DNA of 41,456 nucleotides from a virus: UHGV virus genome UHGV-1460059; one strand, given 5' to 3'. Shown here piece by piece: positions 7,670-41,456 of the stretch. The first letter of the stretch is position 1, and each line of letters begins with the position of its first letter. The notes beneath the pieces were generated by a model. The model worked only from the letters and a program-made list of their open reading frames with translations, did no database searches and was not told the origin of the DNA. A program made the position numbers and the translations under genes.

Positions 7670-7920
7670 CCAGCCACAAGCCACGCCGCTGCATTCAGGT
7701 CTGCCGGAGACATCTGGTCGACAGAGCTTTGCGGCACTTTCGCCAGCCGCACAATGTATTTCGACACCACATGCGCCAGAAGTCTGACTGACTCATCCTG
7801 ATTCATCTGGTAGGGATACCCCAGCTCGCGGACATCCTTCCCGGTGGGTTCATCAAACTCCAGTACGGAGAGTGTCTCGCCATGAGCAGTAATCGGTTTC
7901 TTTAACTCAAGCTCTTTCAT
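7651..7920 (-). CDS. Tail assembly chaperone (0-frame product)
   Basis: 89-aa ORF between the tube and tape measure genes. Its 3' end carries a U UUU UUC heptamer (minus-strand complement of 7663-7669) and is overlapped by a -1 frame ORF. Confidence 0.5.
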   Translation of the reverse strand: MKELELKKPITAHGETLSVLEFDEPTGKDVRELGYPYQMNQDESVRLLAHVVSKYIVRLAKVPQSSVDQMSPADLNAAAWLVAGFFLQA

Positions 7921-8276
7921 TACTGGTAATCCCCTTCTTCACCGTGGAACTCAAGATCAACCGTGCCTTCTTCGGCATTATGGTTCGCTTCGCCGTGCAG
8001 CCAGGCAGACGACAGTACATAGACCTGACCGTTCGCCAGCTCGGCAGTGATGGTCATCTCATCAGACGAGGTGATTTTGCTTACCGGAAAATTCTTCGGC
8101 ACCTTGAAGGTCCCTTTGACATAAGGCGCACGGTGAGTTTCCTTGCGGTCCACTGAACCGTCCAGGCCGATGATGTCATCGTTAACCGTTTTGTTCATGG
8201 GCACCTCAATGCCGCCGGTCAGCGATAGCTGCTGACCGTCAATTTTGAAATAACAGGTTCCCCCGATACGGGCCAT
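7920..8276 (-). CDS. Tail tube protein
   Basis: 118-aa ORF directly downstream of the sheath gene with an overlapping stop/start. Confidence 0.6.
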   Translation of the reverse strand: MARIGGTCYFKIDGQQLSLTGGIEVPMNKTVNDDIIGLDGSVDRKETHRAPYVKGTFKVPKNFPVSKITSSDEMTITAELANGQVYVLSSAWLHGEANHNAEEGTVDLEFHGEEGDYQ

Positions 8277-9772: not shown

Positions 9773-9926
9773 CGGTGTTCACCTTTTTATTCACGCGCCG
9801 GATATCACCCGCTGCTTCACGGCGCAGCCAGTAGTTGTTCTCGTCAACATTTCGCCCTTCGGCGGGCAAAAGGTCGCCGCGGGCAGGGTCAGGCACTGAC
9901 CGCCCTTTAACAGGTTTGACAAACAT
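9756..9926 (-). CDS. Small protein (56 aa) upstream of the sheath gene (Mu gp38 position)
   Basis: Own translation from ATG 9926..9924: MFVKPVKGRSVPDPARGDLLPAEGRNVDENNYWLRREAAGDIRRVNKKVNTDDDKL. GAGGA lies 5 nt upstream and the stop overlaps the sheath start. Below the 60-aa cut-off of the ORF track. Confidence 0.35.
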   Translation of the reverse strand: MFVKPVKGRSVPDPARGDLLPAEGRNVDENNYWLRREAAGDIRRVNKKVNTDDDKL

Positions 9927-9934
9927 GAGGATCC

Positions 9935-10495
9935 TCAGGAAGGAAGGGTTATTTCGGTGTGATGTTCGATATCGCCGTCAGGCCCGTTACCGGGCTCGAG
10001 ATAATCAACATCAATCGCCAGCGTTTGCAGTTCATCCAGACTGTTCAGATCATCCTGCTGGCGGGTATCGTCTTCAGTCAGCTCGCTGATGACCGAAAAA
10101 TCGAACTGATAAATCAGCTCATGACGATTCAGATCCAGCAGCGTGCCGCCGTCATAGGTAATCGGGTTACCGCACGCTTCCGGGTTCCAGCCCAGCAAGG
10201 CCTTAAAGAGCATCTGCCGGACATCGTCCACCACATCATACGAAGCAAACTGACCGAGCTCATCACGCCCGTTACTCAGTATGACAACCACGGAGAAGCC
10301 CTCTTTCAGCTCCTGCCAGTAGTCGGTCTGGCTTTTGTTTTCTCCCGGAGAGTCATCACCCGGTACCACATACGCCGCCGGGAGTCTCAGCTTTCCGACC
10401 TCCGGCAGATTTTTGAACTGTGCCGCGCCTGCCACCCGGTTTTCAAAATACGGGCAGCGGGCACGCAGTGCAGCAATAACAGGCGTCAGTTTCAT
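9935..10495 (-). CDS. Virion protein, Mu gp37-like (tail completion/terminator candidate)
   Basis: 186-aa ORF between the head-tail joining genes and the sheath gene. Confidence 0.4.
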   Translation of the reverse strand: MKLTPVIAALRARCPYFENRVAGAAQFKNLPEVGKLRLPAAYVVPGDDSPGENKSQTDYWQELKEGFSVVVILSNGRDELGQFASYDVVDDVRQMLFKALLGWNPEACGNPITYDGGTLLDLNRHELIYQFDFSVISELTEDDTRQQDDLNSLDELQTLAIDVDYLEPGNGPDGDIEHHTEITLPS

Positions 10496-10998
10496 CTGTG
10501 TCGTCGCTCCGGCTTCAGTGATTTACGCAATTCCCGCGCCAGAAAATAGCGTGTCCAGCTGCGGTTCTTTTCAAGCGTTTCCACCATAAAGTTATTACGT
10601 GGAGCCAGCCGCCAGCCGCTGCCACCGGATGCACCACGATGATGACTACGACGACGTTTTGCTCCTCCCCGGACACCAAAAAACAGAAACGCCGGATAGA
10701 AGTCACCAGAGATCATCCGGTTCCCCTTCCCGTTGCGCTGGTTAGGGGCAATGCGTGTCATAAAACCGGCTCGCTTTTTACTGGCTCTCGGCACCATGTA
10801 ACCAATCGAACGAGCCAGGCGTCCGGTCTGATAACCGGGGTTTTCACCCTGTGCCGACCGCGCACGGCGCATCACCAGCCGACGGGCATCACGCATATGA
10901 CGCTGCCCAATCGTGACAAACGCCCGCCGGACACGGGCGCGGTTAAAGCGCATCTCGGCGGGCTGCTGAACATCAACGTGAAAAAAGGGAGTCGCCAT
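10492..10998 (-). CDS. Head-tail joining protein, HK97 gp10-like
   Basis: 168-aa basic protein in the head-tail joining block, coupled to its neighbours by overlapping stops and starts. Confidence 0.45.
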   Translation of the reverse strand: MATPFFHVDVQQPAEMRFNRARVRRAFVTIGQRHMRDARRLVMRRARSAQGENPGYQTGRLARSIGYMVPRASKKRAGFMTRIAPNQRNGKGNRMISGDFYPAFLFFGVRGGAKRRRSHHRGASGGSGWRLAPRNNFMVETLEKNRSWTRYFLARELRKSLKPERRHR

Positions 10999-11383
10999 TG
11001 CTGCCTCCGTGACTCTGCGTAAATTCGCCCAGTTCCGTACACTCCAGCAGCAGAAAGCGCCGCGCCCCGTTCAGATCGCGCTGACGTTTCACCCGGTACA
11101 CACTGTCATCACAGACCACCTCATAATCAGCAGTGATCCCGCGGCGGTAGCGAATGGTGATGTAATGGGTGATGGCGTCCCCGGTCTGCGCGGTTTCCTG
11201 CCAGGTGGTGGCACTGGTCTGGATAACCTTCGCCCATGCCCGGAACGCAACCGGGTATTGAGGCTCCACGCCAAAGTTATCCGCGGGCATATCCACCCGC
11301 TGGCGGATCAGGACGCGTTTATTCAGTTCGCCGGGGTCCGGCAGTATGTAGGTTGCGCTGGTCTGCGCCTGACGAATTTTCAT
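10973..11383 (-). CDS. Head closure / head-tail adaptor protein
   Basis: 136-aa ORF following the connector gene with an ATGA-type overlap. Confidence 0.45.
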   Translation of the reverse strand: MKIRQAQTSATYILPDPGELNKRVLIRQRVDMPADNFGVEPQYPVAFRAWAKVIQTSATTWQETAQTGDAITHYITIRYRRGITADYEVVCDDSVYRVKRQRDLNGARRFLLLECTELGEFTQSHGGSNGDSLFSR

Positions 11384-11703
11384 AGTGGTATAAGGCGATA
11401 AGGAGCAACCAACCAGTTAAAACTCATTGGCAACTCCATTTTCTCAACGTCTGTAACCGTTGAGCGGTTTTCGTAGAAATGGCTGACAAGTAGCAGAAGT
11501 GCCAGCTTCACATCATCAGATATCACAAGCCCATCAGGATCATCCGCAGGCCTGTCATCTGCGGTTGCATACAACTTACGGTTAAGGAAGTTTTCCGTAC
11601 GACTCTGAGCGGCCTTACCAAGCAGTTCAAGCAACTCATCTTCATCAGAGAAATCATCATCCAGACGGAGCTGAAGCTTAATCTCTTCCATTTTTAACAG
11701 CAT
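11380..11703 (-). CDS. Head-tail connector (gp6-like)
   Basis: ORF 11380..11748 trimmed to the ATG at 11703, which has GGAGG 4 nt upstream. Acidic product (MLLKMEEIKLQLRLDDDFSDEDELLELL...). Confidence 0.5.
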   Translation of the reverse strand: MLLKMEEIKLQLRLDDDFSDEDELLELLGKAAQSRTENFLNRKLYATADDRPADDPDGLVISDDVKLALLLLVSHFYENRSTVTDVEKMELPMSFNWLVAPYRLIPL

Positions 11704-11712
11704 AAAACCTCC

Positions 11713-11736
11713 TGTGCCCGCCAGAACGCGGGCACA
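11713..11736 (-). other. Perfect 9-bp stem-loop between the major capsid gene and the connector RBS
   Basis: tgtgcccgc-cagaac-gcgggcaca. On the minus-strand mRNA the U-run precedes the stem, so it is not a canonical intrinsic terminator; more likely an mRNA stability or processing hairpin. Confidence 0.35.
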
Positions 11737-11781
11737 AAAAAACCGCATTACGCGGCGTGCTGTATTACGTAAAAAGACTAA

Positions 11782-13011
11782 TCAACCACCAACGCTACCT
11801 TTCCCCACCAGCGCTTTAATGGCAGAGGTGTCTTCCAGGATACAGTCAAAACGATGGAAGGCCAGAAAACCGGTCTGATCATATTCCGCGTAACGCTCAA
11901 CCAGACGTTTAAGAATCATGTATCGCACACGACGGATAATGAAGCGATCAAAGTCACCACAGAACATGAATTTTTTACCCGCCCCGATATCATCAATTTC
12001 CTGATCAATGACATACGGTACATTCAACACTGAAGCAGGTGCCACACCAACAATATCCGGCAACCATAAAGGGCGTCCCTGACCGTCTTCCATCTCACTG
12101 ATCAGTTTCAGCGTATTATCGTTAAACGCCAGGCGGAATTTCGGTCCGCGACGATATGCAGGATCAATGCTGTGTTTCAGAGCCAGAATTTCCTGCCACT
12201 TCACCGTATTTGCCGCGGCAGTCTGTGTTGTGCCGGTCACAGATGCGACCAGCCCTTTGGGTTGTTTAGGCGTACCAGCACCAGTTCCCTGAATCAGATA
12301 ACGGGCTTCACCACGACCAATACGTTCAGCAATGCGACGGGCAAGATAAGCTTCCATATCGATCGCACTGTCCTGCAGCAACTCATTAGACACACGAATT
12401 ATTTTCGATGTCATTTTGAGCGCCCCAAGGCTTCCCATACCGAAATCGGTGTCTTCTTCACCGGCTTCTTCATTTTCGCCCAGCAGAACACCAACTTCGG
12501 AAGTACCATCAGCTGTTGCCCACTCCATAGTGCGACCGTCAGAAGTGGTAAGAATCTGCGCCACACTGGCGATGCCACCGTAGGATTTCATCTTCTCAAC
12601 AACTTTCGCCAGGAATGTTTCTGGTACGGTATATCCGCCCTTTTCATCCTGAGCTACGCCCTGGGCACGAAGTTCACGCAACGCCTTTCGTTCTTCTGAT
12701 GTCAGCTCACTGGCACCGTGACGCATCCACTTATCAAAAACCTGAGCTCGTTTCTCATCCTGTTGTGGATTGTTTTCCGGATCAAGATTCTGACGCTGCT
12801 CTTCCTCATTGCTTTCAATGTACGCCTGATCCTGACGACGCAGTTCTTCTTCGCGTGCAATTCGTTCATCAAGCGCTTCCAGTTCGGATTTTGCTTTGTT
12901 CCACTCAGTGCGCTGCTCTTCCGTCCATGCGTTATCACCAATTTTTTCATTCAGGGCGCGCATGTCAGTTGCGATAGTATTACGTTTCTGTTTCAGTTCA
13001 TGCAGTTTCAT
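11782..13011 (-). CDS. Major capsid protein, HK97 family (with N-terminal coiled-coil delta domain)
   Basis: 409-aa ORF with a charged coiled-coil N-terminal ~100 aa (…LDERIAREEELRRQDQAYIESNEEEQRQ…) followed by a capsid-like domain, located after the protease gene. Confidence 0.85.
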   Translation of the reverse strand: MKLHELKQKRNTIATDMRALNEKIGDNAWTEEQRTEWNKAKSELEALDERIAREEELRRQDQAYIESNEEEQRQNLDPENNPQQDEKRAQVFDKWMRHGASELTSEERKALRELRAQGVAQDEKGGYTVPETFLAKVVEKMKSYGGIASVAQILTTSDGRTMEWATADGTSEVGVLLGENEEAGEEDTDFGMGSLGALKMTSKIIRVSNELLQDSAIDMEAYLARRIAERIGRGEARYLIQGTGAGTPKQPKGLVASVTGTTQTAAANTVKWQEILALKHSIDPAYRRGPKFRLAFNDNTLKLISEMEDGQGRPLWLPDIVGVAPASVLNVPYVIDQEIDDIGAGKKFMFCGDFDRFIIRRVRYMILKRLVERYAEYDQTGFLAFHRFDCILEDTSAIKALVGKGSVGG

Positions 13012-13021
13012 GATGTTTCCT

Positions 13022-13624
13022 TTACGCGTTAAGAAGGGTCAGGACGCGTTCACGCGCCATACGTTGATTAATGGCTTTCTGTAGCGCGCCGCTGTTGCGC
13101 GCCTCCTGCCATGCTTTCATGGAGCGAACAGCCGAGTCAGCCTCCTGATAGGCAGGATATGTCACAGGACTGACATCCAGCAGACGGGAAAAGCGGGTTA
13201 TCTCGCGAATAACAACCCCGTCCTCATCCTGATACCACTCCTCGCCGTCACGGGCGACACGGAAAGCAAAAGATGACTGGTTAATATCTCCACGTTGCAT
13301 CGGGGCCAGCACCAGATCACGAATGGTCTGTGTCTCCGGAGCCTGGATGTCATAGCGCAATCCGCGCTCATCAACTGAAAGATTCAGCGTGCCTGCTGCA
13401 CTACGCCCAAGAATAAAATTAGGATCGTGGTTAAACAGTGCGCGTACATCATCACCAAGCACATCGTCAAAAGCGCCGGGCCGGATGATTTCGCGGAATG
13501 AACCAAATATCAGCTCAGAACGACAGTCAAACACCGATCCATAACCGATAATGTGCGCAGGGTTATCGTCATGCCGCTCAGCACGCACCTCACCGCTGTA
13601 ACAACGGATTTCACGGTCATTCAT
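13022..13624 (-). CDS. Prohead protease, HK97 family
   Basis: ORF 13022..13681 trimmed to the ATG at 13624 (MNDREIRCYSG…), which has GAGGG upstream and overlaps the portal stop. Confidence 0.75.
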   Translation of the reverse strand: MNDREIRCYSGEVRAERHDDNPAHIIGYGSVFDCRSELIFGSFREIIRPGAFDDVLGDDVRALFNHDPNFILGRSAAGTLNLSVDERGLRYDIQAPETQTIRDLVLAPMQRGDINQSSFAFRVARDGEEWYQDEDGVVIREITRFSRLLDVSPVTYPAYQEADSAVRSMKAWQEARNSGALQKAINQRMARERVLTLLNA

Positions 13625-14843
13625 TGGTTTTTCCCTCATCATTTTTTGGGGGCTTAAAATCTCCTGCCGGGTTAGCAGCATTCACGCTTACCAGCATCTC
13701 ATCCAGCCCTTCAACCGGATTCATATCCTCGAATGCGCGGGCTTCATTACGGCTCATCCATCCATCGGTAATAGCGAAGTGATAGAATTGCGCGCGCTCC
13801 TGCGGAGTTCCGCGTAAAAGCCCCGTCAGATTGAACCTAACGTAATACCCGGCGGCTAACTCAGCGCGGGTAAACAAGCGACGGTTAAGCTCCTGCTCCC
13901 AGTTCGTTACCCACGGCATCATCGTGTAGCGGACAAACTGAATCGCCTGCGCAGAAATATTGGAGAAGGTGGCTTTTTCGAGGTCATTAATCATGTGCGC
14001 AGGAATATTGAAAATACCGGCAATCATTGAACGGTTCAGTTTCATCATGTCAATGATCTGAGCGTCAACTGGCGACACAGTCAGTGCCTTGTAATCCAGA
14101 TCGGCTGGCAGCAGCATGGTTTTGTTTTCCTGGCTGCGTAACGCCTGCGATGCCTTCTGCCACTGATCTTTAAGCCAGCCCCAGCTGTCCTTATTGAGTC
14201 CGCTTTTAACGGATACTATCCCCGCCGGACGGGCATTACCGCTGAAGAAGCTTTCTGTGTATTTCTGACCGCTCATCCCCATGCCTATTGTTTCGGCATG
14301 TTGCATAATCGGACTCAGCCCCATCTTCTGATTATTACCCAGCGCACGGATGTGGATCATATCGTCGGGGCTGATCGCAAACGCCCCATATTCGTTGTAC
14401 AAACCGTAGGTGTATCGGCCACCAGTATTCATCAGCGTCGTTTCCCACGGCATACAGCAATCCAGGGATATGACTTCACCGCGACGATTACGTTTCACCC
14501 AGGTATACCCATTCCCCCAGCCAAGGATGTGACGTTGCTTCAGTTCGCGCCATTTGTAACTGGTTTGCCAGGTATTGGGCTCATCATGAACCAGATAAAA
14601 CGCCGGATGATCGCGTGCGGGCTCAACCTTCCCATTGTGCCTGCGCATAACATGCAACGGCATCTGGGCAAGGCTGGAAGACAGGACATAGATACAGGAA
14701 TACACCGCAGCCAGTTTCATCGCAGTTTCAGGACTGACATAAACGTCTGTCCGGAACAGCCCATCAGTATCAACGGCATCCCCGGTTATCGGGGTGGAAG
14801 GATTCTCCAGTGATTTACTTCTGAACAGAGCATCAAGCAGCAC
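13617..14843 (-). CDS. Portal protein, HK97 family
   Basis: 408-aa ORF between the terminase and the protease genes. Confidence 0.85.
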   Translation of the reverse strand: MLLDALFRSKSLENPSTPITGDAVDTDGLFRTDVYVSPETAMKLAAVYSCIYVLSSSLAQMPLHVMRRHNGKVEPARDHPAFYLVHDEPNTWQTSYKWRELKQRHILGWGNGYTWVKRNRRGEVISLDCCMPWETTLMNTGGRYTYGLYNEYGAFAISPDDMIHIRALGNNQKMGLSPIMQHAETIGMGMSGQKYTESFFSGNARPAGIVSVKSGLNKDSWGWLKDQWQKASQALRSQENKTMLLPADLDYKALTVSPVDAQIIDMMKLNRSMIAGIFNIPAHMINDLEKATFSNISAQAIQFVRYTMMPWVTNWEQELNRRLFTRAELAAGYYVRFNLTGLLRGTPQERAQFYHFAITDGWMSRNEARAFEDMNPVEGLDEMLVSVNAANPAGDFKPPKNDEGKTNE

Positions 14844-32846: not shown

Positions 32847-33053
32847 ATGCTGAACCTCGATTGTGTTCCTATCTCAACTTATTGCAAAGAAACTGGCGAA
32901 ACTCCTGAAGCAATAAACAAACGTGTACAGCGCGGTGTTTGGCGTGAAGGTGTTCAGGTTTTAAAGGTTGAAGGCGTTAAGGAGAGGTGGATTGATCTTA
33001 GTGAGGTTGCAAAATGGGCCAGACAAAACTGCTCAAACTACCGCGCGGCGTAA
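32847..33053 (+). CDS. Excisionase-like small DNA-binding protein
   Basis: 68-aa basic protein whose 3' end overlaps the int start by 40 nt. ATG at 32847 has GGAG upstream; the alternative start is 32835. Confidence 0.45.
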   Translation: MLNLDCVPISTYCKETGETPEAINKRVQRGVWREGVQVLKVEGVKERWIDLSEVAKWARQNCSNYRAA

Positions 33054-34186
33054 CAATCAGGAAACACCGCCAGGGAGAAACGATCAATATAACTTTCACC
33101 TACAAAGGAGTTAGATGTCGTGAGCCGCTTTCCAATCTGGAAGTAACACCAAAGAACATTAAATACGCCGAGCGTACACTCGGCGAAATCCATAATAAGA
33201 TCGAAAGGGGAACATTCATTTATGCAGAATATTTTCCCCGTTCTGCTCGTTTGAAAATTTTTGGTAATGCTGCTGCAGGCAAAACGGTAAAGATGTACCT
33301 GGACGAATATCTTGAAATCTGCGAAACAAGAAAACTTTCACCCTCTACGATTGGTGGCTATAAAAAATGCCGTAGTGCGTTAGCCTCACTTCACATTTGC
33401 CCTGCAAGTGAATTAACACCAGCAACCCTGAAAGCGTGGATTCAAAATCAGAAAACGACCTTAAAAACAATTCGCAACCAGTTATCTTTCCTGCGGTCAG
33501 CACTTGATGAAGCCGTGACCGATGGGGTACTTCAAATTAACCCCGTATCGTTAGTAACAGCTTCGCGCTACCAAAGTGATAAGTCAGAAGCAGAAAGCAG
33601 CTACGTAGTTGATCCGCTATCACCAGCAGAAGTTGATGCATTACTAGCAGCAGCCGGAAACAAACAATGGGAAAATCTGTTCCGGTTCGCTATACATACA
33701 GGCCTGCGTAGTTCTGAATTATGTGCCCTTCGATGGCGTGATATCGACTTTGTTGGAAAAACTGCCCATGTCCAGAGCGCAAGTGTTGTCGGTGTTATCA
33801 AAGGGACAAAGACAAAAGCAGGTACTCGGAAAGTTGAACTGACAGAAGAGGCAATGTTGGCGCTGATAAATCAGAAGCCATTTACATTCATGAAGGATAC
33901 TACTGTCTTTGAAGATCCAAAGACCAATAAGCCTTGGGCAAGTGCTGATGCAATCAGGAAAAAAGCATGGGTGCCAACATTGCGAAAAGCAGGTATTCGT
34001 TACAGAAATCCATATCAAACTAGGCATACATTCGCCACCCGCCATATCAGCCGGGGAGCAAACCTGTTTTGGCTTGCAGCTCAAATGGGGCATAAAGGGC
34101 CGGAAATGTTATTTCGTCATTATGGTTCATATTTAAAGGAATATGACGGTAATACGACCAGCAATATCACAAAAAAAGCCACTTAA
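33014..34186 (+). CDS. Tyrosine integrase (lambda-type, with arm-binding N-terminal domain)
   Basis: 390 aa; C-terminal catalytic signature including …HTFATRHISRGANLFWLAAQMGHKGPEMLFRHYGSYL… (R, HxxR, Y). Confidence 0.9.
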   Translation: MGQTKLLKLPRGVTIRKHRQGETINITFTYKGVRCREPLSNLEVTPKNIKYAERTLGEIHNKIERGTFIYAEYFPRSARLKIFGNAAAGKTVKMYLDEYLEICETRKLSPSTIGGYKKCRSALASLHICPASELTPATLKAWIQNQKTTLKTIRNQLSFLRSALDEAVTDGVLQINPVSLVTASRYQSDKSEAESSYVVDPLSPAEVDALLAAAGNKQWENLFRFAIHTGLRSSELCALRWRDIDFVGKTAHVQSASVVGVIKGTKTKAGTRKVELTEEAMLALINQKPFTFMKDTTVFEDPKTNKPWASADAIRKKAWVPTLRKAGIRYRNPYQTRHTFATRHISRGANLFWLAAQMGHKGPEMLFRHYGSYLKEYDGNTTSNITKKAT

Positions 34187-34199: not shown

Positions 34200-34583
34200 T
34201 TAGGAGGCTCTCGATTTAAGCATTTCCGTACACTTAGCAAAGAGCCTCTCAGTTGTTAGAATCGCAACTTCAGACTGTTTAGAAGTGACCGATTGATCAA
34301 GTCGATAGTCTGCAACAATCCTCTGAGCTTTAAGTTGACTCAGGATAAAACTAATCCCTTTTAGATATCTAGCTTCATATACTTCACTTCCTCTTGAAGC
34401 ATCGCCCTGCAAATAATTGATTAGCCCCTGATGACTGTCTTTCGGCCCGTTTACCATACAAGGCAAGACATGATGGTAAGCGCCATAGTAGGATCTTGCT
34501 ATAGCATTTCGATAGCCGATTTCGTCATTACGTTGATGACAGTCTTTTGCAAAACCGAGAAAATCTTGACTATTAACCGGCAT
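34200..34583 (-). CDS. Hypothetical protein with R-x6-H motif (HEPN-like candidate), distal gene of the int-att operon
   Basis: ATG at 34583 with GGAGGG 7 nt upstream; 127 aa; motif RSYYGAYHH; 11-nt overlap with the upstream gene. Confidence 0.4.
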   Translation of the reverse strand: MPVNSQDFLGFAKDCHQRNDEIGYRNAIARSYYGAYHHVLPCMVNGPKDSHQGLINYLQGDASRGSEVYEARYLKGISFILSQLKAQRIVADYRLDQSVTSKQSEVAILTTERLFAKCTEMLKSRAS

Positions 34584-35388
34584 GTGCAACCCTCCGGGTA
34601 ATCAGACCTAATTCGGAGATAGCATTCTGCTCAATATGTGTGTCTTTACATTCAAACCAAACAGCAAAATCTTTACCGACTAAACAATCGTGCTCAGCCA
34701 TTGAAAAAGCAAGCTCAATATTCATATCAGCGATTTGTTCAGCATCAGAAGACTTTGTCATGAATACAATCGCATTCACTTTCTCTTCCGAAATATTATA
34801 AAAACGCATTCCCGAAAGATGAACCTTCTGAGAATCCATGACATTGGCTACATTATTGAAAATAAGTTCATATTCTAAACCAGAAAGATCGGCACGTTGC
34901 TTAAAGGATTCGACCTGGGAAACAACTTCATCAAAATTGTTGTCCATTTTTTCAGGCTCCTTATCTCCGAACAATTTAGAGTATGACTGGAAATACTTCT
35001 CCGCCAACGCCATCTTCCCCATAAAGAGGGAGTTTTCATAAGCTTGAAGATAAATAAACGGGGATATGAAGCTTTCAGCAAGCTTAATGCTTGTTTCAAA
35101 GCTTTTCTTCAACGTACCGTAATCTGACAAGAAAACAAGAAAATTCTTTGCAACAACCTCATTATGGCATACCTGCAAGGAACGCTCAAAGAAGCCTATC
35201 GCCTCATTCACTTGGCCATGTGCACCATAGACCAACGCTAAAAGATAGTCCTCAGAGACAGGATCTCTAAGTGCTTCAATCTCACGTAACATCCTTCTAA
35301 AGCTAAAGTCATCAATCCTCACTCCATCTTTGAGGTATTTAGTTAGCCGCGCGCTAATAACTGATGCTTTTTTTGCTGGCTGCAACAT
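34573..35388 (-). CDS. Hypothetical protein (271 aa), AT-rich, first gene of the int-att operon
   Basis: Long ORF in AT-rich DNA; helical-repeat-like N-terminal half; no recognised catalytic motif. Confidence 0.45.
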   Translation of the reverse strand: MLQPAKKASVISARLTKYLKDGVRIDDFSFRRMLREIEALRDPVSEDYLLALVYGAHGQVNEAIGFFERSLQVCHNEVVAKNFLVFLSDYGTLKKSFETSIKLAESFISPFIYLQAYENSLFMGKMALAEKYFQSYSKLFGDKEPEKMDNNFDEVVSQVESFKQRADLSGLEYELIFNNVANVMDSQKVHLSGMRFYNISEEKVNAIVFMTKSSDAEQIADMNIELAFSMAEHDCLVGKDFAVWFECKDTHIEQNAISELGLITRRVAHAG

Positions 35389-35815
35389 TAAAAACCTTAT
35401 CTTACAAATAGTTGGTAATGATGTTGAATTATTTTTTGTTCTTTATGGCTAATAAGATTACATGAAGGGACAACTTCTGACCACCTTAGAAAACACTCAC
35501 TTTAGTAACAAGAGTCAATAATATTGTTGACAAATCACAAAAAAACAAACTTATCCAAAACAATCTGGTTTATCACAAAGCCTCTGTGCATAAATCTGTG
35601 CATAACATCATTTTTACACACATTTTTTTATAAAAATATTTTTTAGCAAAAAATGCTATCTATCTCCGAAACTGCAACCACAAACCATTAATTCCAAATG
35701 AAACTATTTTAAAATAAATAGTAAGACAGTAACAGGACAGAAAAAGTTCCGCAAAAGAGCCGCTTGTAAAATCAACAATATTTGGCTATTTAAATTCAAT
35801 GAATTACATAACTAT

Positions 35816-35847
35816 GGACACGGGTTCAACTCCCGCCAGCTCCACCA
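35816..35847 (+). other. ssrA (tmRNA) 3'-end-like fragment: attachment-site core / junction between two integrative elements
   Basis: GGACACGGGTTCAACTCCCGCCAGCTCCACCA matches the recalled E. coli tmRNA 3' terminus with one mismatch. Upstream sequence is AT-rich and unlike ssrA, so only the terminal ~32 nt are present. Confidence 0.6.
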
Positions 35848-36012
35848 CTTTTTAGTTGTTTGAAGTTCAATGAAGTCTACTAAGCCCACACAGCACAAGC
35901 TCTGCGGGCTTTTTTACGTCTATTGTCGTCCAGTGAGAATTGCTGAGAACTACGAGTTATGGCACCCTGAATGGGACCCACTAAGAAGGGTCCAAAAACC
36001 GAGGGTCCCAAA

Positions 36013-37242
36013 ATGGCAAAAATCGCTAAGAAGCTCACTGACACTGAAATCAAAAGCACCAAGCCAGCCGATAAAGAAATCAACTTGTTTGACGGTGATG
36101 GTCTGATTCTACGAATCGCTCCTTTGGCGAAAGGAGGCAAGAAAAATTGGTATTTCAGGTATGCAGTACCAGTGAGCAAGAAAAGAACCAAAATGAGCCT
36201 TGGGACATATCCTCACCTTACCCTTGCAAGAGCCAGAGCCTTACGTGATGAATATCTCTCCTTTCTGGCAAATGGTGTTGATCCCCAAATCCATAACAAC
36301 GATAAGGCGAAGGCATTAAAGAGTGCTACTGAGCACACTCTCCAAGCCGTAGCGCGGAAATGGTTAGATGAGAAGGTAAAGACATCAGGTATCTCACAAG
36401 ACCATGCAGCAGACATCTGGCGCAGCTTAGAGAGAAATGTCTTTCCCGGTCTGGGTAATGTCCCTATCAATGAGATCCGACCTAAGCTCTTAAAACAACA
36501 CCTTGATCCTATTGAGCAACGAGGCGTATTGGAAACTCTACGCCGTATCATTTCACGTCTGAATGAAATCTTCCGGTGGGCAGCTACTGAAGAACTTATT
36601 GAGTTCAACCCGGCTGACAACCTTGGTCAAAGATTCAGTAAACCAAAAAAGCAAAATATGCCTGCCCTTCCCCCAAGCGAATTGCCAAGGTTTATGGAAT
36701 CTTTGACGAATGCGTCAATCCGGTTGGAAACACGTATGCTAATTGAATGGCAATTGTTGACATGGGTTCGTCCGGGTGAAGCCGTTCGCGCAAGGTGGTC
36801 TGATATTGATACAACCAACAGCATTTGGAACATTCCTGCTGATTTCATGAAAATGAAAAAGCTTCACAAAGTTCCTTTGAGTAAAGAAGCTTTGCGCATC
36901 CTTGAATTAATGAAATCAATAAGTGGGCATAGAGAATGGGTTTTCCCCAGCATAAAAGCGCCTCTTAATCATATGCATGAACAAACAGCCAACGCAGCTA
37001 TCATCCGAATGGGGTTCGGAGGCGAGCTTGTAGCTCACGGTATGCGTTCTATTGCACGAACAGCGGCAGAGGAGTCTGGTAAATTCAGAGCTGAAGTTCT
37101 TGAGGCAGCGCTTGCCCACTCGAAAAAAGATGAAATTATCGCAGCATACAATCGTGCAGAATATCTGATAGAGCGACAGAGTTTGATGCAATGGTGGAGT
37201 GATTACGTTCAAGCTCAAAGATCAAATGCTCTGGTAGCCTAA
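36013..37242 (+). CDS. P4-type tyrosine integrase (IntA-like)
   Basis: ATG at 36013 with GAGGG upstream. N-terminus MAKIAKKLTDTEIKSTKPADKEINLFDGDGLILRI… is typical of P4-family integrases; lies ~165 bp downstream of the ssrA-like fragment. Confidence 0.85.
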   Translation: MAKIAKKLTDTEIKSTKPADKEINLFDGDGLILRIAPLAKGGKKNWYFRYAVPVSKKRTKMSLGTYPHLTLARARALRDEYLSFLANGVDPQIHNNDKAKALKSATEHTLQAVARKWLDEKVKTSGISQDHAADIWRSLERNVFPGLGNVPINEIRPKLLKQHLDPIEQRGVLETLRRIISRLNEIFRWAATEELIEFNPADNLGQRFSKPKKQNMPALPPSELPRFMESLTNASIRLETRMLIEWQLLTWVRPGEAVRARWSDIDTTNSIWNIPADFMKMKKLHKVPLSKEALRILELMKSISGHREWVFPSIKAPLNHMHEQTANAAIIRMGFGGELVAHGMRSIARTAAEESGKFRAEVLEAALAHSKKDEIIAAYNRAEYLIERQSLMQWWSDYVQAQRSNALVA

Positions 37243-37280
37243 GTATCAGAATAGCTAATATAATCCTGAAGGTAAAGAAA

Positions 37281-37697
37281 ATGGAAACCCTATTCAAAGT
37301 TTTTGAAAAATTTAGTTCCAGACCACTTTTTTTTATTTTTTTCGGACTCTCACTTTGTGAATTTTTTCAGAAACAATCTGTTCTGATGAATCCATCAGCA
37401 GATAACATCGCGAAATTATTCGCAGCCATGATATTAGTTGTTTTTTTTACTTGGGGATTTGAATGGCTAATCTTCAAGTTCAATGTAAACCTTGAACCTC
37501 ATGATCAAGGCGATATTGGACCAACAATTGGAACGGCTACTTTAGCTGTATACTTAGTTTATGCCTTTCACTTTCTCAGTGAAAATCCTGAAGCATTAAA
37601 TTTAAAGTTATTAACTAACTCTGGCTTTATATACAGCACAACTCTATTATTATTCTCATTAGAATGCATGAAGCTTAGAAGACTTAAACAAAAATAA
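37281..37697 (+). CDS. Small membrane protein (138 aa), AT-rich island cargo
   Basis: Hydrophobic segments (PLFFIFFGLSLCEFF; LFAAMILVVFFTWGFEWLIF; TIGTATLAVYLVYAFHFL; FIYSTTLLLFSL). Confidence 0.4.
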   Translation: METLFKVFEKFSSRPLFFIFFGLSLCEFFQKQSVLMNPSADNIAKLFAAMILVVFFTWGFEWLIFKFNVNLEPHDQGDIGPTIGTATLAVYLVYAFHFLSENPEALNLKLLTNSGFIYSTTLLLFSLECMKLRRLKQK

Positions 37698-37728
37698 ACA
37701 ACATCATTGTGATGATAAATATAAAATA

Positions 37729-37755
37729 GGCATGGCGAAAAAAAATCACCACGCC
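37729..37755. terminator. Imperfect hairpin between convergent genes (candidate terminator)
   Basis: ggcatggcga-aaaaaaa-tcaccacgcc (8 of 10 pairs); U-rich on the minus strand after the stem. Confidence 0.35.
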
Positions 37756-37768
37756 TAAAATATAATAA

Positions 37769-39517
37769 TTATGGTAGCATCATTGATACATAATCCACAC
37801 CAATCCTTGAGCTATACTGAGACGCTATAGCCTGATATCTTTCTGCATAACCAGTTCTCAGTTGAGATTTAAGTTTGAGTCGGACAGGAACATTTTGCAC
37901 GTTGCCATCCATATTACTTAAAAACACGGCAGAAATAATATTTTTTTCTTCGCCATCAACTGTTGTTCCATGATTCAACACCACCATATAATCAACAACA
38001 GGAAGCGTTTTATCCCCTTCGAAAATAGAGAGATATTTTCTTTGATTTTTATGCATTACATATATATATTTCGAATGTTCAGCAAATGGCAATGCTTTAC
38101 TCTGACTGGCGTTAAAAAGCTCCAGAACTTTAATGAGCCTGTGCGGACTTAATCTTACATGGTGAGGGTCGTTACCCTGAGTAGGAACCAAATCACATGC
38201 CGCAGATACACATAAATACCATTTGTTCGACTCTGTATCAAAGAAAATAGTGCCAGTAGAAATATGACCATCTTCAAAATTCTTTGAAGACAAATTCATA
38301 TTTAAAGCATGATACATTTCGTGATAAGTATCATTATTTGATGGCAGATCCATTTTTGAAGAGCAATATTGGAGCAATGCAGCAACTCCGCTGTTAGCGT
38401 ATTCATTTGAATAGCTATCAAAAACACTTTTGATAAATTCATCCAGCGTATTATTATTTTTAAGTCTTTGATAAAGCTCTTCTGATAAATTACCAAATAC
38501 AAAGTCAATATTTCTACATCTAATATCAGGCGAGTCTGATTTTAATATCTCATTTAACCACGCAGCTTGACCGTAATGATCGTTAGCAAAATGATTTACA
38601 AAAGATAAAGCCTCAGCTTCGATTGCATTCTGAATTTCAGATTTTATTAACTGATAATAAGATGGTTTCCATTCAATGAGAGAATCATTGAGAGTTTGCC
38701 AAATCCTATCTCCATCGTTTTCATGATCATCTTGAACCTTATGAAATAGGGAGACAAAGATATTACCACATTGAATCCATTTTACTCCGCTTTCATCACC
38801 CCGAATGACATTGCCAGATGTGTTGCTAGAAATAATTGCATTTCTAGACACAGCATATTCTGCAATCATTTTTGCAATGAAGTTTTTATCCTTTTGATCC
38901 TCCAACACAGCATCATCATGTATTAATCTTTTAATTCTTCTACAAGGCTTACTGTCTTTAATATAGGCTATTGTTTCATCTCTTGTGAGAGCTTTATTAC
39001 CATTATCATTTAAGTTCGGTAATACAACGTCTTCCCAATAACTTTGGACATCTTCATTATCGTAGTCAATGATCAAGCTGTTGATATCCAGAGCACCTTT
39101 GAGAGTCGATGATATCTGCATCCAAACCGTTTCTAAATTCTCTCTAGTATATATTACAATCATATTTAAATGATCGGAGTCTTTCAAATCTTGTAATAGT
39201 TTAAGTGTTTTATCAGGTGCATTATTATCAAGATGATAATCTACAATAATAAGATCTGATTTTCTAATCCGATCCACATCGAAATTAACAGAACCATTGT
39301 CAACATCACAAATCATATTTTTAGATTGAAAAAAGCTCTCAAGAGTAGCGGCTCGTTTAGATGAGTCAATTTTGTTGTAGTCTAAATCAACTTCGTTATT
39401 CAACGCCCTGATTGATTCAGAATACGTCAGAAAATCGTCATCAATCATGACAACGGAACGAATTGCATTTTCGCAGAAAGTTTTCTGGACAAGAGAATTA
39501 TAATTTGCCACTGTCAT
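37769..39517 (-). CDS. Receiver (REC)-domain protein with ~450-aa uncharacterised C-terminal domain
   Basis: N-terminal REC-like signature: VVMIDDDF (acidic pocket), LIIVDYHL (phospho-acceptor Asp), NMIVIYT (Thr). Start preferred at ATG 39517, 1 nt after the upstream stop; ATG 39535 is the alternative. Very AT-rich. Confidence 0.5.
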   Translation of the reverse strand: MTVANYNSLVQKTFCENAIRSVVMIDDDFLTYSESIRALNNEVDLDYNKIDSSKRAATLESFFQSKNMICDVDNGSVNFDVDRIRKSDLIIVDYHLDNNAPDKTLKLLQDLKDSDHLNMIVIYTRENLETVWMQISSTLKGALDINSLIIDYDNEDVQSYWEDVVLPNLNDNGNKALTRDETIAYIKDSKPCRRIKRLIHDDAVLEDQKDKNFIAKMIAEYAVSRNAIISSNTSGNVIRGDESGVKWIQCGNIFVSLFHKVQDDHENDGDRIWQTLNDSLIEWKPSYYQLIKSEIQNAIEAEALSFVNHFANDHYGQAAWLNEILKSDSPDIRCRNIDFVFGNLSEELYQRLKNNNTLDEFIKSVFDSYSNEYANSGVAALLQYCSSKMDLPSNNDTYHEMYHALNMNLSSKNFEDGHISTGTIFFDTESNKWYLCVSAACDLVPTQGNDPHHVRLSPHRLIKVLELFNASQSKALPFAEHSKYIYVMHKNQRKYLSIFEGDKTLPVVDYMVVLNHGTTVDGEEKNIISAVFLSNMDGNVQNVPVRLKLKSQLRTGYAERYQAIASQYSSRIGVDYVSMMLP

Positions 39518-39518
39518 A

Positions 39519-41237
39519 TTAGAACTCCACTTCATTGAACTGGATCACAAAATTAGCGCCATCTTTTATTAAATAGTTATCGCCTTCATCAGGTTCTGAA
39601 TACCATATTTTATGATGTGCAACAGCAAGGTTTTCTCGACATAGATACAGACCTACCCCATGTCCATTTGCTCTTTTGCTATAAAATAGTTCAAATAGTC
39701 GCGGGATATCATCGGTATCAATTGCCGGACCAGAATTTGCTATGATAACCAAAGAATTCACAAAACCAATCTTTATGAGCCTATTATTTGACAGACTGAC
39801 CCAATACATTGCATTGTTGATAATATTAGTAAAAACAGGATAGATCCTTGATGGTATATCTGTTATTGCGATTTGCTTAAACTCTTCACTAAATTCAATA
39901 GTTATTCGTTGCCGTTCGAAACGCTCCCCAAAGAACTTCAGGACATAATCCATGATATTTTTTCCAGTTATTCTCTGCCTGGATTGATAACCTGATATTT
40001 TCAAAGGTGATAAGAAACGTATTTGTTGAGTAAGCGATCTGTGAGCATTTAACGCCAATGAAAAACCAGGGTGTTCTTTTACAGAAGTAGGAAGAGAGTT
40101 TAGTCCTCTGGTTACCATAGAATCCATTTCTTCAAGTTCATGAGATATTATCTCAACACTAATACCTAACTGTGCAAGCGCGTTTAAACTTTTAGCTTTT
40201 TCTTCAAAATATGAGCGTTCTTCTTCAGATAATGAGAATGCTGAATCTAAGTTTATACCTTCAAATAATCTATCGAGACCTTTTATTATTGATTGATATT
40301 TGAAAGTTAGGGTATCAACTGACTCAACATATAAACTATCGAGCAAATTAAACACATTTTCAATTTGTGAATCATTATCTATTGAATCAACAACTGATAT
40401 AGTTTTAGCATAATAATCACTTCGATCAACCTTTATTTCATCGGCCCATTTTTTTAAAAGAGAATGTATCTTCTCCTCTATCGTGTTATTAAACTTAGTT
40501 AGTTTAGAATTAATAATACCTTGATTTTTTTCAAGGTGATTTTTCGCTGACAATGAAGGCTCAAGTTTATTTAATTCAGAATCAAGTTTATTAATTGCTA
40601 ACTTCATTTGTAGAATATACGCAGAGAACTCATTAAATTTATCTCTGTAGTCTCTATATTTCTCTTCATACATTCCAAGTTTTGGAGGTTTGATAGGCGT
40701 TTTAATTTCACTGCGCAACGCATCTAAGTTTGTAAGATCACTGTCTATAATTTTAAGATAGTTTAAATCTAACGAACCATCAGTTTTATCAAGCTTAGTT
40801 TTCAGCCTTTTAACAGCCTCCAAGGAAGCATCAAGAACTGGTGTCTGATTCTTCAAAGCTTCTGAAAAACTTTTTTGTGTTGATTTTCGAGCTTGTTGTT
40901 GAGCAGATTTTCTTAACTCTTTTTCACGCTTAACTTGTTCTAAAAGCTCTTTACGGTCATCAGAACGTGAACCAAAAAATCTATCAGCAAGTTCAGTTAA
41001 CAAATTAGATATAATAGTTTTCAGTTCTCTTGCAGCCTGGTTTCTTATGAATCCCTCTCTCCCCGACTTATCTTTCAGCTCTTTATTACTGGATTGAGTA
41101 ATTCCAATATAACCAAAAATCCTTCTATTAGACCAATAATATCGCCCTGCATTCCATGAACGTCTTTCTTCTATCTGGAAGAAATCATTATCTACTCGAC
41201 CATAAGGTAATACTCTCAAGCTATCCCTAAAAATCAT
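39519..41237 (-). CDS. Soluble histidine-kinase-like protein (coiled-coil N-terminal region + HisKA/HATPase-like C-terminus), apparently 5'-truncated
   Basis: H-box-like ISHELEEM, N-box NIINNAMYW, G1 NSGPAID, G2 GHGVGLYLC; no TM segments. The reading frame stays open upstream of the first ATG to 41363 inside the IS end, with no start codon. Confidence 0.5.
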   Translation of the reverse strand: MIFRDSLRVLPYGRVDNDFFQIEERRSWNAGRYYWSNRRIFGYIGITQSSNKELKDKSGREGFIRNQAARELKTIISNLLTELADRFFGSRSDDRKELLEQVKREKELRKSAQQQARKSTQKSFSEALKNQTPVLDASLEAVKRLKTKLDKTDGSLDLNYLKIIDSDLTNLDALRSEIKTPIKPPKLGMYEEKYRDYRDKFNEFSAYILQMKLAINKLDSELNKLEPSLSAKNHLEKNQGIINSKLTKFNNTIEEKIHSLLKKWADEIKVDRSDYYAKTISVVDSIDNDSQIENVFNLLDSLYVESVDTLTFKYQSIIKGLDRLFEGINLDSAFSLSEEERSYFEEKAKSLNALAQLGISVEIISHELEEMDSMVTRGLNSLPTSVKEHPGFSLALNAHRSLTQQIRFLSPLKISGYQSRQRITGKNIMDYVLKFFGERFERQRITIEFSEEFKQIAITDIPSRIYPVFTNIINNAMYWVSLSNNRLIKIGFVNSLVIIANSGPAIDTDDIPRLFELFYSKRANGHGVGLYLCRENLAVAHHKIWYSEPDEGDNYLIKDGANFVIQFNEVEF

Positions 41238-41358
41238 TAGTCCTGCATACTTTTTGGCCTTAAGATCAAAGTGGGAATGTTCACGTTCAGTATGTGATGT
41301 ATTTTGTGAAAGGAATTCAAACGTTCCTATCTGAAGCTCAAATGGGCCGACCCCTGCG

Positions 41359-41456
41359 TGATCCTACCCACGTAATATGGACACAGGCCTAAGCGAGGTT
41401 CTTGTTTTCAAATTGTTCCGGACTGAGGCCGCCACACCAACTGTGCCGCCGCCACC
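41359..41456 (-). mobile_element. IS3-family insertion sequence, terminal ~100 bp (inverted repeat plus 3' end of the transposase gene), continuing beyond the window
   Basis: Terminus TGATCCTACCCACGTAATATGGACACAGGCC. Minus-strand translation of 41454..41387 gives …WRRHSWCGGLSPEQFENKNLA*, the conserved C-terminus of IS3-family OrfB. Matches the IS3 right end as recalled. Confidence 0.7.

Follow-up and report, generated by a model that had tools for sequence, protein, structure and literature searches.

The window (UHGV virus genome UHGV-1460059, the whole stretch of 41,456 nucleotides that was analysed) carries near its end two adjacent minus-strand genes resembling a histidine kinase and a receiver protein, and the question that they raise is whether the pair is a housekeeping two-component system, a phage-defence system of the Detocs kind or something else. 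From sequence comparisons, we consider it rather probable that this pair is the 3' half, left over after decay, of a mobile trio, which would act as a methylation-gated, restriction-like phosphorelay system. The module lies on a P4-type integrase islet at ssrA in the E. coli chromosome. The GC content is 0.32-0.37 over 37-41 kb, compared with 0.50-0.59 over the first 27 kb of the window, and both open reading frames are present, so that the AT-rich minus-strand pair on an integrase islet described in the initial annotation was borne out. The features of the locus are collected in Table 1.

Table 1. Features of the kinase/receiver locus and its islet (positions in the window).
Feature	Position	Strand	Evidence
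ssrA (tmRNA) 3' fragment, attachment-site copy between prophage and islet	35800..35847	+	Rfam RF00023 partial match, E 1.9e-5
P4-type tyrosine integrase of the islet on which the module lies	35971..37242	+	Pfam Arm-DNA-bind_3, Phage_int_M, Phage_integrase
Convergent 138-aa predicted membrane protein	37281..37697	+	ORF; a PHROG of unknown function is the only family match
Terminator-like hairpin (12-bp stem, then T run) between the convergent genes, just 3' of the receiver gene	37727..37757	-	Consensus scan only
Receiver-effector gene, Response_reg_2 family, 582 aa from Met7	37769..39517	-	ORF; Pfam PF19192
C-terminal putative effector module, residues 271-588	37772..38725	-	No sequence family
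Receiver (REC) domain, residues ~25-270, with helical insert between helix 4 and strand 5	38726..39463	-	
3' remnant of paraMORC-histidine-kinase gene	39519..41358	-	Corresponds to residues 381-994 of intact ~990-aa relatives
HATPase_c catalytic domain; N box NxxNN, G1 N-S-G-P-A, G2 GHGVGL	39579..39854	-	Pfam PF02518, 44.9 bits, cut-off 26.4
HEF_HK dimerisation and phospho-acceptor (DHp) domain, His-Glu in SHELEE	39996..40172	-	Pfam PF19191, 26.2 bits, cut-off 24.1
IS3 right end (3' end of transposase gene and terminal inverted repeat), abutting the kinase remnant	41359..41456	-	Sequence, junction alignments

The same integrase adjoins ssrA in other E. coli and in the related locus L003. ARAGORN returned no whole tmRNA gene, and in prophage-free strains ssrA is positioned immediately upstream of the integrase. 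The small convergent membrane protein pointed out at the start is a real ORF that recurs beside the receiver gene in enterobacterial relatives, where it is convergent to that gene in the Salmonella, Citrobacter, Erwinia and Serratia loci (L005-L014), and it is missing from L003, L004 and every distant locus. As a neighbour of the module it is lineage-specific.

The kinase ORF (39519-41237, minus strand) encodes 572 amino acids from its first ATG, and the frame stays open to 41363; in RefSeq, the product is labelled as a 572-aa 'ATP-binding protein' with the ATG at 41237. The H-, N-, G1- and G2-box motifs of a histidine kinase, read from the sequence in the initial annotation, withstood the profile search, in which HEF_HK and HATPase_c both scored above their Pfam cut-offs. 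Alignment column counts revealed that the four boxes are kept in 51 relatives, and the His-Glu motif (H788-E789) is invariant across these relatives and present in the window copy. In the G1 box, Asn replaces Asp in the window copy, as it does in 24 of the 51 relatives, and this replacement could weaken ATP binding. Domain search of the remnant found no transmembrane or sensor domain, in agreement with the earlier description of a soluble kinase.

The longest receiver ORF (37769-39535, minus strand) encodes 588 amino acids. Since homologues and RefSeq, which labels the product as 'response regulator receiver domain' with 582-583 aa, start the protein at Met7 (39517), the kinase and receiver genes abut with a 1-nt gap; the adjacency of the two genes thus stands, and the 17-nt overlap once assigned to them does not. 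The product matches Response_reg_2 with 109.1 bits (cut-off 27) over residues 25-181. Residues D32/D33, D99, T130 and K266 are invariant, and D99 occupies the phospho-acceptor position. The protein had been described as a receiver followed by about 450 residues with no recognisable motif. The receiver and the C-terminus without a family were both recovered, and because the receiver fold with its helical insert reaches about residue 270, the unassigned part comprises about 320 residues and not 450.

This putative effector module is formed by a helical domain (274-416), a beta-rich domain (417-560) and a terminal helix. Beyond Response_reg_2, the receiver protein gave no match in Pfam, NCBIfam or PADLOC. 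For the module itself, no family was obtained from Pfam searches with 34 members, NCBIfam, PADLOC or a PDB profile search, no fold match was obtained when we used Foldseek against PDB, and hhalign gave no match to E. coli MazF. The receiver protein contains no DNA-binding output of the OmpR, NarL, NtrC or LytTR type, which is consistent with the large non-DNA-binding C-terminal module that had been proposed. In a profile search of 1.84 billion proteins, the module occurred solely behind a receiver domain; stand-alone pieces such as L060 were rejected as decayed fragments beside Vsr.

The initial annotation supposed that the kinase gene had lost its 5' end to an IS3 insertion, and the junction, which we mapped to the base, demonstrates this loss: the remnant starts directly at the IS3 end, and its homology to intact kinases begins at their residue 381. 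Identical loci have an annotated IS3 transposase at this spot. The window has lost the C5 DNA methylase gene together with kinase residues 1-380. Because these residues were deleted at the IS3 junction, the window kinase contains no HATPase_c_3 (paraMORC-type) ATPase, which is present in the intact kinase of L003. Similarly, the ORF list and Pfam revealed no C5 methylase gene in the islet of the window, owing to the IS3-associated deletion.

Intact kinase homologues, which were sought to recover the missing N-terminus, were found, and they carry an N-terminal GHKL ATPase. In the intact relatives the genes form a trio of a C5 DNA methylase, a protein of about 990 residues that combines a GHKL ATPase with the kinase core, and the receiver protein, and the order methylase, 990-aa kinase with HATPase_c_3, receiver is seen in L003, L004 and L005-L007. 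At L003, which occupies the same ssrA/integrase site, the receiver protein is 86% identical and the intact kinase (994 aa) shares 88% identity with the remnant from residue 381 on. In the kinase of about 990 residues, the paraMORC-type GHKL ATPase is followed by a conserved middle block and then by a long stretch of poor conservation, which the initial annotation took for a coiled coil, before the kinase core. Its N-terminal GHKL motifs E35, N39, D42, DxGxG and GxKGIGR are conserved, and no part of the family is better conserved than the ATPase that the window has lost.

We compared 50 loci at which the kinase and receiver genes are both full; these loci come from Gamma- and Alphaproteobacteria and from assemblies labelled Acidobacteriaceae, Chthoniobacterales (Verrucomicrobiota), Desulfotalea and Polyangium. 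The methylase adjoins the kinase/receiver pair in 46 of these loci. Vsr is the only other widely recurrent neighbour (17/50), and an HNH family recurs in just 6 loci, indicating that no nuclease gene is conserved across the kinase/receiver family. The relatives are carried by islands of an integrative or mobilisable type, which contain relaxase and integrase genes, and defence genes, for AbiEii and for a ScoMcrA-like HNH protein, are among their neighbours. Plasmid carriage was seen in two distant matches only. Two 'phage' matches were rejected as phage carriage, as they are chromosomal flanks that prophage records include. A housekeeping two-component system, against which the initial annotation had already argued, was rejected: the genes are AT-rich and lie on an ssrA integrase islet, about 10% of E. 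coli carry them, and their relatives are found on mobilisable islands.

We suggest that in the intact trio the methylase would mark host DNA and the GHKL ATPase end of the kinase would sense unmarked, foreign DNA. Such sensing would lead to autophosphorylation of His788, the phosphate would move from this residue to Asp99 of the receiver, and the phosphorylated receiver would free its C-terminal effector, which is probably a nucleic-acid-targeting toxin or nuclease and for which a MazF/CcdB-like barrel is the sole structural lead. Judged from its genomic context, a defence role is plausible. The wider proposal is that the intact trio may be an uncharacterised immune or addiction class, in which a GHKL ATPase reads methylation, His-Asp phosphotransfer follows and an undescribed effector, perhaps a MazF/CcdB-like toxin, is set to work; we put this forward tentatively and with considerable doubt.

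The receiver protein also bears on a different explanation, namely that the intact pair is a two-component regulator of the neighbouring restriction-modification system and that the C-terminal module is a novel DNA- or protein-binding output. Response regulators are for the most part transcription factors, the receiver residues have been kept, and a C-terminal fold without assignment leaves room for a binding role, all of which speak for such a regulator, an explanation that we regard as unlikely. In its favour, signalling cascades that control restriction-modification systems were suggested by the authors of the 2021 description of the gene families (PMC8011034).

It has been known that restriction-modification systems act as addiction modules (PMC8011034), and the intact trio might therefore be chiefly a selfish module that kills after segregation upon loss of the methylase, and not a phage defence. 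Its carriage on islands with relaxase and integrase genes fits this explanation, and so does the loss of the methylase and the sensor end in one deletion in E. coli, a type of loss that addiction modules permit. However, some neighbours of the trio belong to defence, namely AbiEii and ScoMcrA-like HNH, and addiction and defence are not exclusive. Addiction as the chief role seems to us highly improbable.

With the methylation-gated trio as the preferred origin of the pair, we considered what has become of the remnant in E. coli. It is present in about 560 of 5,426 complete genomes (about 10%), and the same truncation boundary is found in these genomes and in CP-1639. An E. coli 'remnant integrative element' beside prophage CP-1639 (GenBank AJ304858.2) is the same locus with 99.7% protein identity, and it shares the kinase truncation point, the 138-aa ORF and the integrase with the window. 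The two copies differ in that the junction of AJ304858.2 is without IS3 and its integrase is cut by insertion sequences, whereas the window has IS3 and a whole integrase. Both reading frames of the remnant are intact in hundreds of genomes and a 582-aa receiver is the norm; a widespread truncated receiver allele was rejected, the 453-aa cluster consisting of contig-end partials. All copies share at least 99% identity, so that visible decay has had little time to arise. When we compared the remnant with an intact relative by a crude branch count, the ratios of non-synonymous to synonymous changes were 17:40 against 11:40 for the receiver gene and 17:69 against 15:56 for the kinase gene, which gives no non-synonymous excess on the E. 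coli branch, a weak count since the copies are very similar.

As judged from its sequence, the window copy is probably inactive, with the kinase core and the receiver-effector uncoupled and silent. Against its inactivity stand the two intact frames and the absence of an excess of amino-acid changes. These same two observations are what a remnant that still functions in E. coli, as an orphan signalling pair or a methylase-independent defence, has on its side, along with an IS3 transposase gene upstream on the same strand, which could provide read-through transcription of the remnant. Against a functional remnant, decay has had scant time to show in such near-identical copies, no promoter-like site was found upstream of the kinase ATG as far as the IS3 end, the lost ATPase is the best-conserved region of the family and occurs in about 83% of HEF_HK proteins, and just about one in ten E. 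coli genomes carries the remnant. Taking both sides together, we find a functional remnant distinctly unlikely. The survival of the remnant without its methylase fits an effector that would depend on the lost sensor, and it hints that a cell tolerates the effector after the joint loss of the sensor end and the methylase. On the wider proposal, E. coli would carry a naturally deleted form, lacking sensor and methylase, which shows that the effector does no harm when its sensor is missing.

Alone, the window locus adds little; remnants truncated in this way are common, and their family is already covered by Pfam and by a publication. The family itself, as a widely spread three-gene module, is worth experiment: our literature search found no experimental characterisation of any HEF_HK/Response_reg_2 member, and the trio is absent from the PADLOC-DB v2.0.0 model library. 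It appears to put a phosphorelay that leads to a private effector domain in the place of the usual paraMORC-type fusion of ATPase and nuclease. If this swap proves real, bacterial immunity would, after Detocs, have a second and independent case of two-component signalling, and the first that is tied to DNA methylation. On the wider proposal, the trio would amount to restriction-modification with an added signalling step, possibly with abortive infection as its output.

BbrUII/HgiDII restriction enzymes have C5 methylases as partners. In the intact relative, residues 13-138, within the GHKL end, match the NCBIfam model 'BbrUII/HgiDII family restriction enzyme' (NF050001) with E 4.5e-14, and the GHKL end matches the PADLOC REase_II model with E 1.6e-9. 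Membership in NF050001 was rejected, since the score was 51.9 bits against a cut-off of 550, the match covered an N-terminal stretch only and the window copy lacks the region. The BbrUII/HgiDII and paraMORC3 enzymes have a homologous GHKL ATPase and the same association with C5 methylase and Vsr as the intact kinase, and in both the paraMORC-type enzymes and the trio the ATPase is thought to control an effector. In the former the ATPase is fused to a nuclease, while in the trio it is fused to a kinase core and the effector lies on the separate receiver protein. ParaMORC3 corresponds to Shedu type I-D, for example VcSduA (PMC2292703, PMC12137116). Compared with the MazF/Kid/CcdB fold, the effector module shows no sequence or profile similarity and no Foldseek match; its conserved residues T429, C447-D448, R560, R577 and D581 form no alignable MazF motif, and the domain sits inside a much larger protein.

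The pair in the window is not new. Both genes belong to Pfam families (PF19191 and PF19192) whose members were described computationally as a 'two-component-like' HEF_HK/Response_reg_2 pair by Bellieny-Rabelo, Pretorius and Moleleki in 2021 (PMC8011034). In that study, the two genes were linked in 91.6%, C5 methylases and restriction-modification genes were enriched nearby, and an N-terminal HATPase_c_3 was frequent but not obligatory in HEF_HK proteins. The window shares with the described pair both families, the adjacent gene order, a soluble kinase, the His-Glu motif and the receiver Asp residues, and its relatives share the C5 methylase linkage and the N-terminal HATPase_c_3. The window copy itself differs in being without the HATPase_c_3 end and the methylase as a result of the IS3-associated deletion. 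It resembles the minority 'group 2' architecture of PMC8011034, which is here an artefact of truncation.

Finally, Detocs consists of DtcA with TPR repeats, the stand-alone receiver DtcB and DtcC, usually with a PNP nucleosidase, and it is detected with three HMMs (bioRxiv 10.1101/2023.01.24.525353). No TPR sensor was found in the kinase remnant or in the intact 994-aa relative, no DtcB-like stand-alone receiver was found in 37200-41456 or among the recurrent neighbours of the 50 loci, and the C-terminal 320 residues of the receiver protein gave no Pfam or PADLOC match to PNP or another known abortive-infection effector. In addition, no PADLOC model matched the kinase core or the receiver protein. 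That the pair is itself a member of Detocs is therefore scarcely credible: the outline of a soluble kinase, a receiver with a non-DNA-binding C-terminus and a mobile island is the same, but the Pfam families are separate and the trio is tied to a methylase. The resemblance to Detocs seen at the outset thus holds by analogy and not as membership, and what the two systems would have in common is their logic, in which a kinase phosphorylates a receiver that bears a toxic effector and not a DNA-binding domain.

The minus strand of the window carries a histidine kinase-like gene next to a receiver-like gene, as the initial annotation had proposed; the pair is confirmed because both ORFs are present, their Pfam scores lie above the cut-offs and receiver residues are invariant. 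The kinase product matched HATPase_c with 44.9 bits (cut-off 26.4) and HEF_HK with 26.2 bits (cut-off 24.1), and residues 25-181 of the receiver product matched Response_reg_2 with 109.1 bits (cut-off 27); D32/D33, D99, T130 and K266 of the receiver are invariant in 34 homologues with 23-86% identity. The two genes had been described as overlapping, but the receiver start is probably Met7 (39517), and they therefore abut. Outside Response_reg_2 the receiver product has no Pfam match, and neither protein gave a specific match in PADLOC or NCBIfam. The large C-terminal part without a family is indeed present, at about 320 aa rather than the earlier estimate of about 450 aa.

Features of the window and domains of the intact kinase protein from the closest relative (L003)
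Feature	Position	Strand	Length or remark
Prophage	1 to ~34,200		ends with tyrosine integrase 33014-34186
ssrA (tmRNA gene) 3' fragment	35800-35847		
P4-type integrase	35971-37242		after ssrA fragment
Receiver ORF	37769-39535	-	588 aa
Kinase ORF	39519-41237	-	572 aa
L003 kinase, HATPase_c_3	residues 31-142		
L003 kinase, HEF_HK	residues 778-836		
L003 kinase, HATPase_c	residues 884-987		

The claim that the kinase gene has a truncated 5' end at IS3 was correct. The kinase frame is open upstream as far as a stop at 41364-41366, and the product aligns to the intact protein from residue 381 on with 88% identity, indicating that the window lacks the N-terminal ATPase of the kinase as well as the methylase and the remaining island. 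The IS3 end lies at 41359; we take minus-strand bases 41456-41359 to be the right end of IS3, and identical loci carry an annotated IS3 transposase at this position, with a fragment of an alpha-amylase-like pseudogene beyond it. In the CP-1639 region (AJ304858.2, ~2736), which is without IS3, the kinase truncation point is base-identical to that of the window (41358/41359), and in the IS3-less E. coli lineages 6 bp of the opposite flank are missing, with 'CG' in their place. Since the kinase boundary is identical and the opposite flank altered in this way, the structures fit a single ancestral deletion associated with IS3, after which some lineages lost IS3 imprecisely. No promoter-like site was found between IS3 and the kinase ATG, and read-through from the same-strand IS3 transposase is possible. 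The E. coli remnant, without sensor and methylase, is probably silent or inactive. We grade this as likely because the remnant contains no frameshifts, its amino-acid change is not in excess of that in the intact relative (receiver gene, 17:40 versus 11:40; kinase gene, 17:69 versus 15:56), and those database entries in which the receiver is short proved to be partial sequences at contig ends.

The window comes from an E. coli chromosome, and its last 21 kb are 99.9% identical to E. coli strain 1500. In prophage-free strains the P4-type integrase directly adjoins ssrA, and the series that comes next matches that of the window, with a 138-aa ORF, the genes for receiver and kinase, and then IS3. 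The GC content is 32-37% across 37-41 kb, compared with 50-59% for the first 27 kb. Among 5,426 complete genomes of E. coli, ~560 carry the remnant at >=99% identity, in every case on the chromosome; strain SE11 is one carrier. Several further features were observed around it. The 138-aa ORF (37281-37697) runs convergently to the receiver gene, and its product is predicted to be a membrane protein; loci of Salmonella, Citrobacter, Erwinia and Serratia have it at this position too, and it is absent in L003, in the Pantoea locus L004 and in every distant relative. In the interval from the prophage integrase to the ssrA fragment, two overlapping minus-strand ORFs (34200-35388) encode 129 aa and 271 aa, with a weak PADLOC HEPN_IX match (E 0.0014) and a weak TPR match, respectively, and fall in PHROGs without an assigned function (phrog_5176, phrog_17809); because they adjoin the integrase, they could be a toxin or defence pair carried by the prophage. 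Four PHROGs (phrog_7659, phrog_30547, phrog_8137 and phrog_6556) match the chromosomal genes of 37769-41357 almost perfectly, which likely reflects the flanking remnant inside prophage records such as CP-1639 and phi467; if so, these are non-phage genes. Adjoining the tmRNA fragment, 35838-35915 gave a partial match to the Rfam IsrM sRNA far under the gathering score (52.8 bits versus 376), which is probably shared attachment-site sequence of ssrA islands and not a real sRNA gene.

The closest intact relative, the Logan assembly locus L003, has a receiver protein 86% identical to that of the window and occupies the same smpB/ssrA-integrase site. Its genes encode, in order, a 195-aa unknown protein, a C5 DNA methylase (389-393 aa), a kinase protein of 991-994 aa and a 582-aa receiver protein, and the same order was found in Pantoea (L004) and Salmonella (L005-L007), in islands with relaxase and integrase genes. 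In Salmonella enterica (L005/L007) the methylase gene spans 7767-9020, the kinase gene 9001-11985 and the receiver gene 11987-13732. When we scanned one genome per species, 58 loci were obtained, and counts were made on the 50 with full-length kinase and receiver genes. The two genes are adjacent in all 50, and 46 loci have a C5 methylase next to them, which shares their strand in 37 upstream and 3 downstream cases and lies downstream on the opposite strand in the remaining 6; no adjacent methylase is present in two loci, and the flanks of another two are too short to tell. The hosts are Gamma- and Alphaproteobacteria, together with assemblies labelled Acidobacteriaceae, Chthoniobacterales (Verrucomicrobiota), Desulfotalea and Polyangium; a Gemmatimonadetes assembly (L037) has the kinase and receiver genes without the methylase. 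Apart from the methylase, Vsr alone recurs widely as a neighbour (17 loci); an HNH family occurs in only 6 loci, and no nuclease gene conserved across the family was found among the recurrent neighbours. Just upstream of the methylase, the enterobacterial intact loci contain a divergent pair of small genes (L003 2478-3715; L004 4406-5711; L005 6377-7699), one of ~195-203 aa co-directional with the methylase and one of ~180-203 aa on the other strand. Their products are 51% and 38% identical between L003 and L004, have no Pfam or PADLOC match and are absent in distant loci; they could be extra components or regulators. The Salmonella islands with an intact trio of methylase, kinase and receiver genes also hold a ScoMcrA-like HNH protein, of a type that restricts modified DNA, or an AbiEii/DUF6088 pair (L006 9836-10711; L005 19269-20715), indicating that the module travels with other defence genes.

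Conservation along the kinase protein was scored across 51 relatives of full length. The N-terminal GHKL motifs (E35, N39, D42, D64xGxG and G107xKGIGR), a middle block at residues 421-490 (RDxLRVxPYG...DKxGREG), H788-E789, the N box and the G2 box are conserved, and residues ~500-770, which the initial annotation had read as a putative coiled coil, are poorly conserved. The G1 box reads D or N, then x-G. The canonical Asp of this box normally contacts adenine, and in about half of the family (24 of 51), the window copy (~39770-39785; L003 residues 923-927) included, it is replaced by Asn (N-S-G-P-A). The GHKL end (residues 13-138) matches NCBIfam NF050001, 'BbrUII/HgiDII family restriction enzyme', with an E-value of 4.5e-14 at a score far under the family cut-off, and also a PADLOC type II restriction-enzyme model. 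The restriction enzymes BbrUII and HgiDII have C5 methylases as partners. ParaMORC ATPases have been described in restriction-modification systems, where they work with nucleases that are either fused to them or encoded next to them (Iyer et al. 2008, PMC2292703), and anti-phage defence by the paraMORC3-type VcSduA requires both ATPase and nuclease (PMC12137116).

Residues 271-588 of the receiver protein, which we call the effector module, gave no match in Pfam, NCBIfam, PADLOC or PDB sequences. A separate structure model (pLDDT 84.8) consists of a helical domain (274-416), a beta-rich domain (417-560) and a last helix. Foldseek of this model against the PDB gave no significant match and hhalign gave none with E. 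coli MazF. We treat similarity to the MazF/CcdB fold as no more than a weak lead. When a profile of the module was compared with 1.84 billion representative proteins, 631 clusters were obtained, in which it lies almost always at about residues 260-600 of 580-640-aa proteins, indicating that it is found solely behind a Response_reg_2 receiver domain; the shorter matches are fragments, such as a decayed piece adjoining Vsr (L060). The invariant polar residues E300, Q302, N303, E306, N412, T429, C447, D448, Q558, R560, R577 and D581 are candidates for an active site or an interface.

This kind of system is already known: it has its own Pfam families, was described in a paper of 2021 and is annotated as a remnant in GenBank. 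Bellieny-Rabelo, Pretorius and Moleleki (Genome Biol Evol 2021, PMC8011034) defined the families HEF_HK (PF19191) and Response_reg_2 (PF19192). They found 91.6% linkage of the genes over 644 regions, soluble kinases, an N-terminal HATPase_c_3 domain in ~83% of HEF_HK proteins, and C5 methylases, Vsr and restriction-modification genes enriched around the pairs, and they proposed an origin from paraMORC ATPases. In AJ304858.2, which covers prophage CP-1639 and its integration site, the E. coli locus bears the label 'remnant integrative element', and one of its products is called a 'histidin kinase-like protein'. Our analysis adds the truncation mapped to base level, counts of the trio in several phyla, a connection between the ATPase end and the BbrUII/HgiDII enzymes, and an effector module private to the family with only a weak lead to a MazF/CcdB-like fold.

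We think that the trio works in the manner of a restriction-modification system to which a signalling step has been added, because the conserved unit comprises only methylase, ATPase-kinase and receiver-effector and its ATPase end is related to ATPase domains of restriction enzymes. Beyond the domain assignments, we infer the following course: the methylase would mark self DNA, the GHKL end would sense unmarked DNA, the kinase core would autophosphorylate on His788, and the phosphate would move to Asp99 of the receiver protein, releasing the effector module. A resemblance to Detocs had been suggested initially. Detocs, represented by three HMMs, consists of DtcA with TPR repeats and a kinase, DtcB as a stand-alone receiver 'buffer', and DtcC with a receiver and a PNP or other effector (bioRxiv 10.1101/2023.01.24.525353). 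In contrast, neither the TPR repeats of DtcA, the stand-alone receiver DtcB nor the PNP effector of DtcC was found here; without any defining Detocs feature, membership is ruled out, and the likeness that stands between the two systems is one of shared logic.
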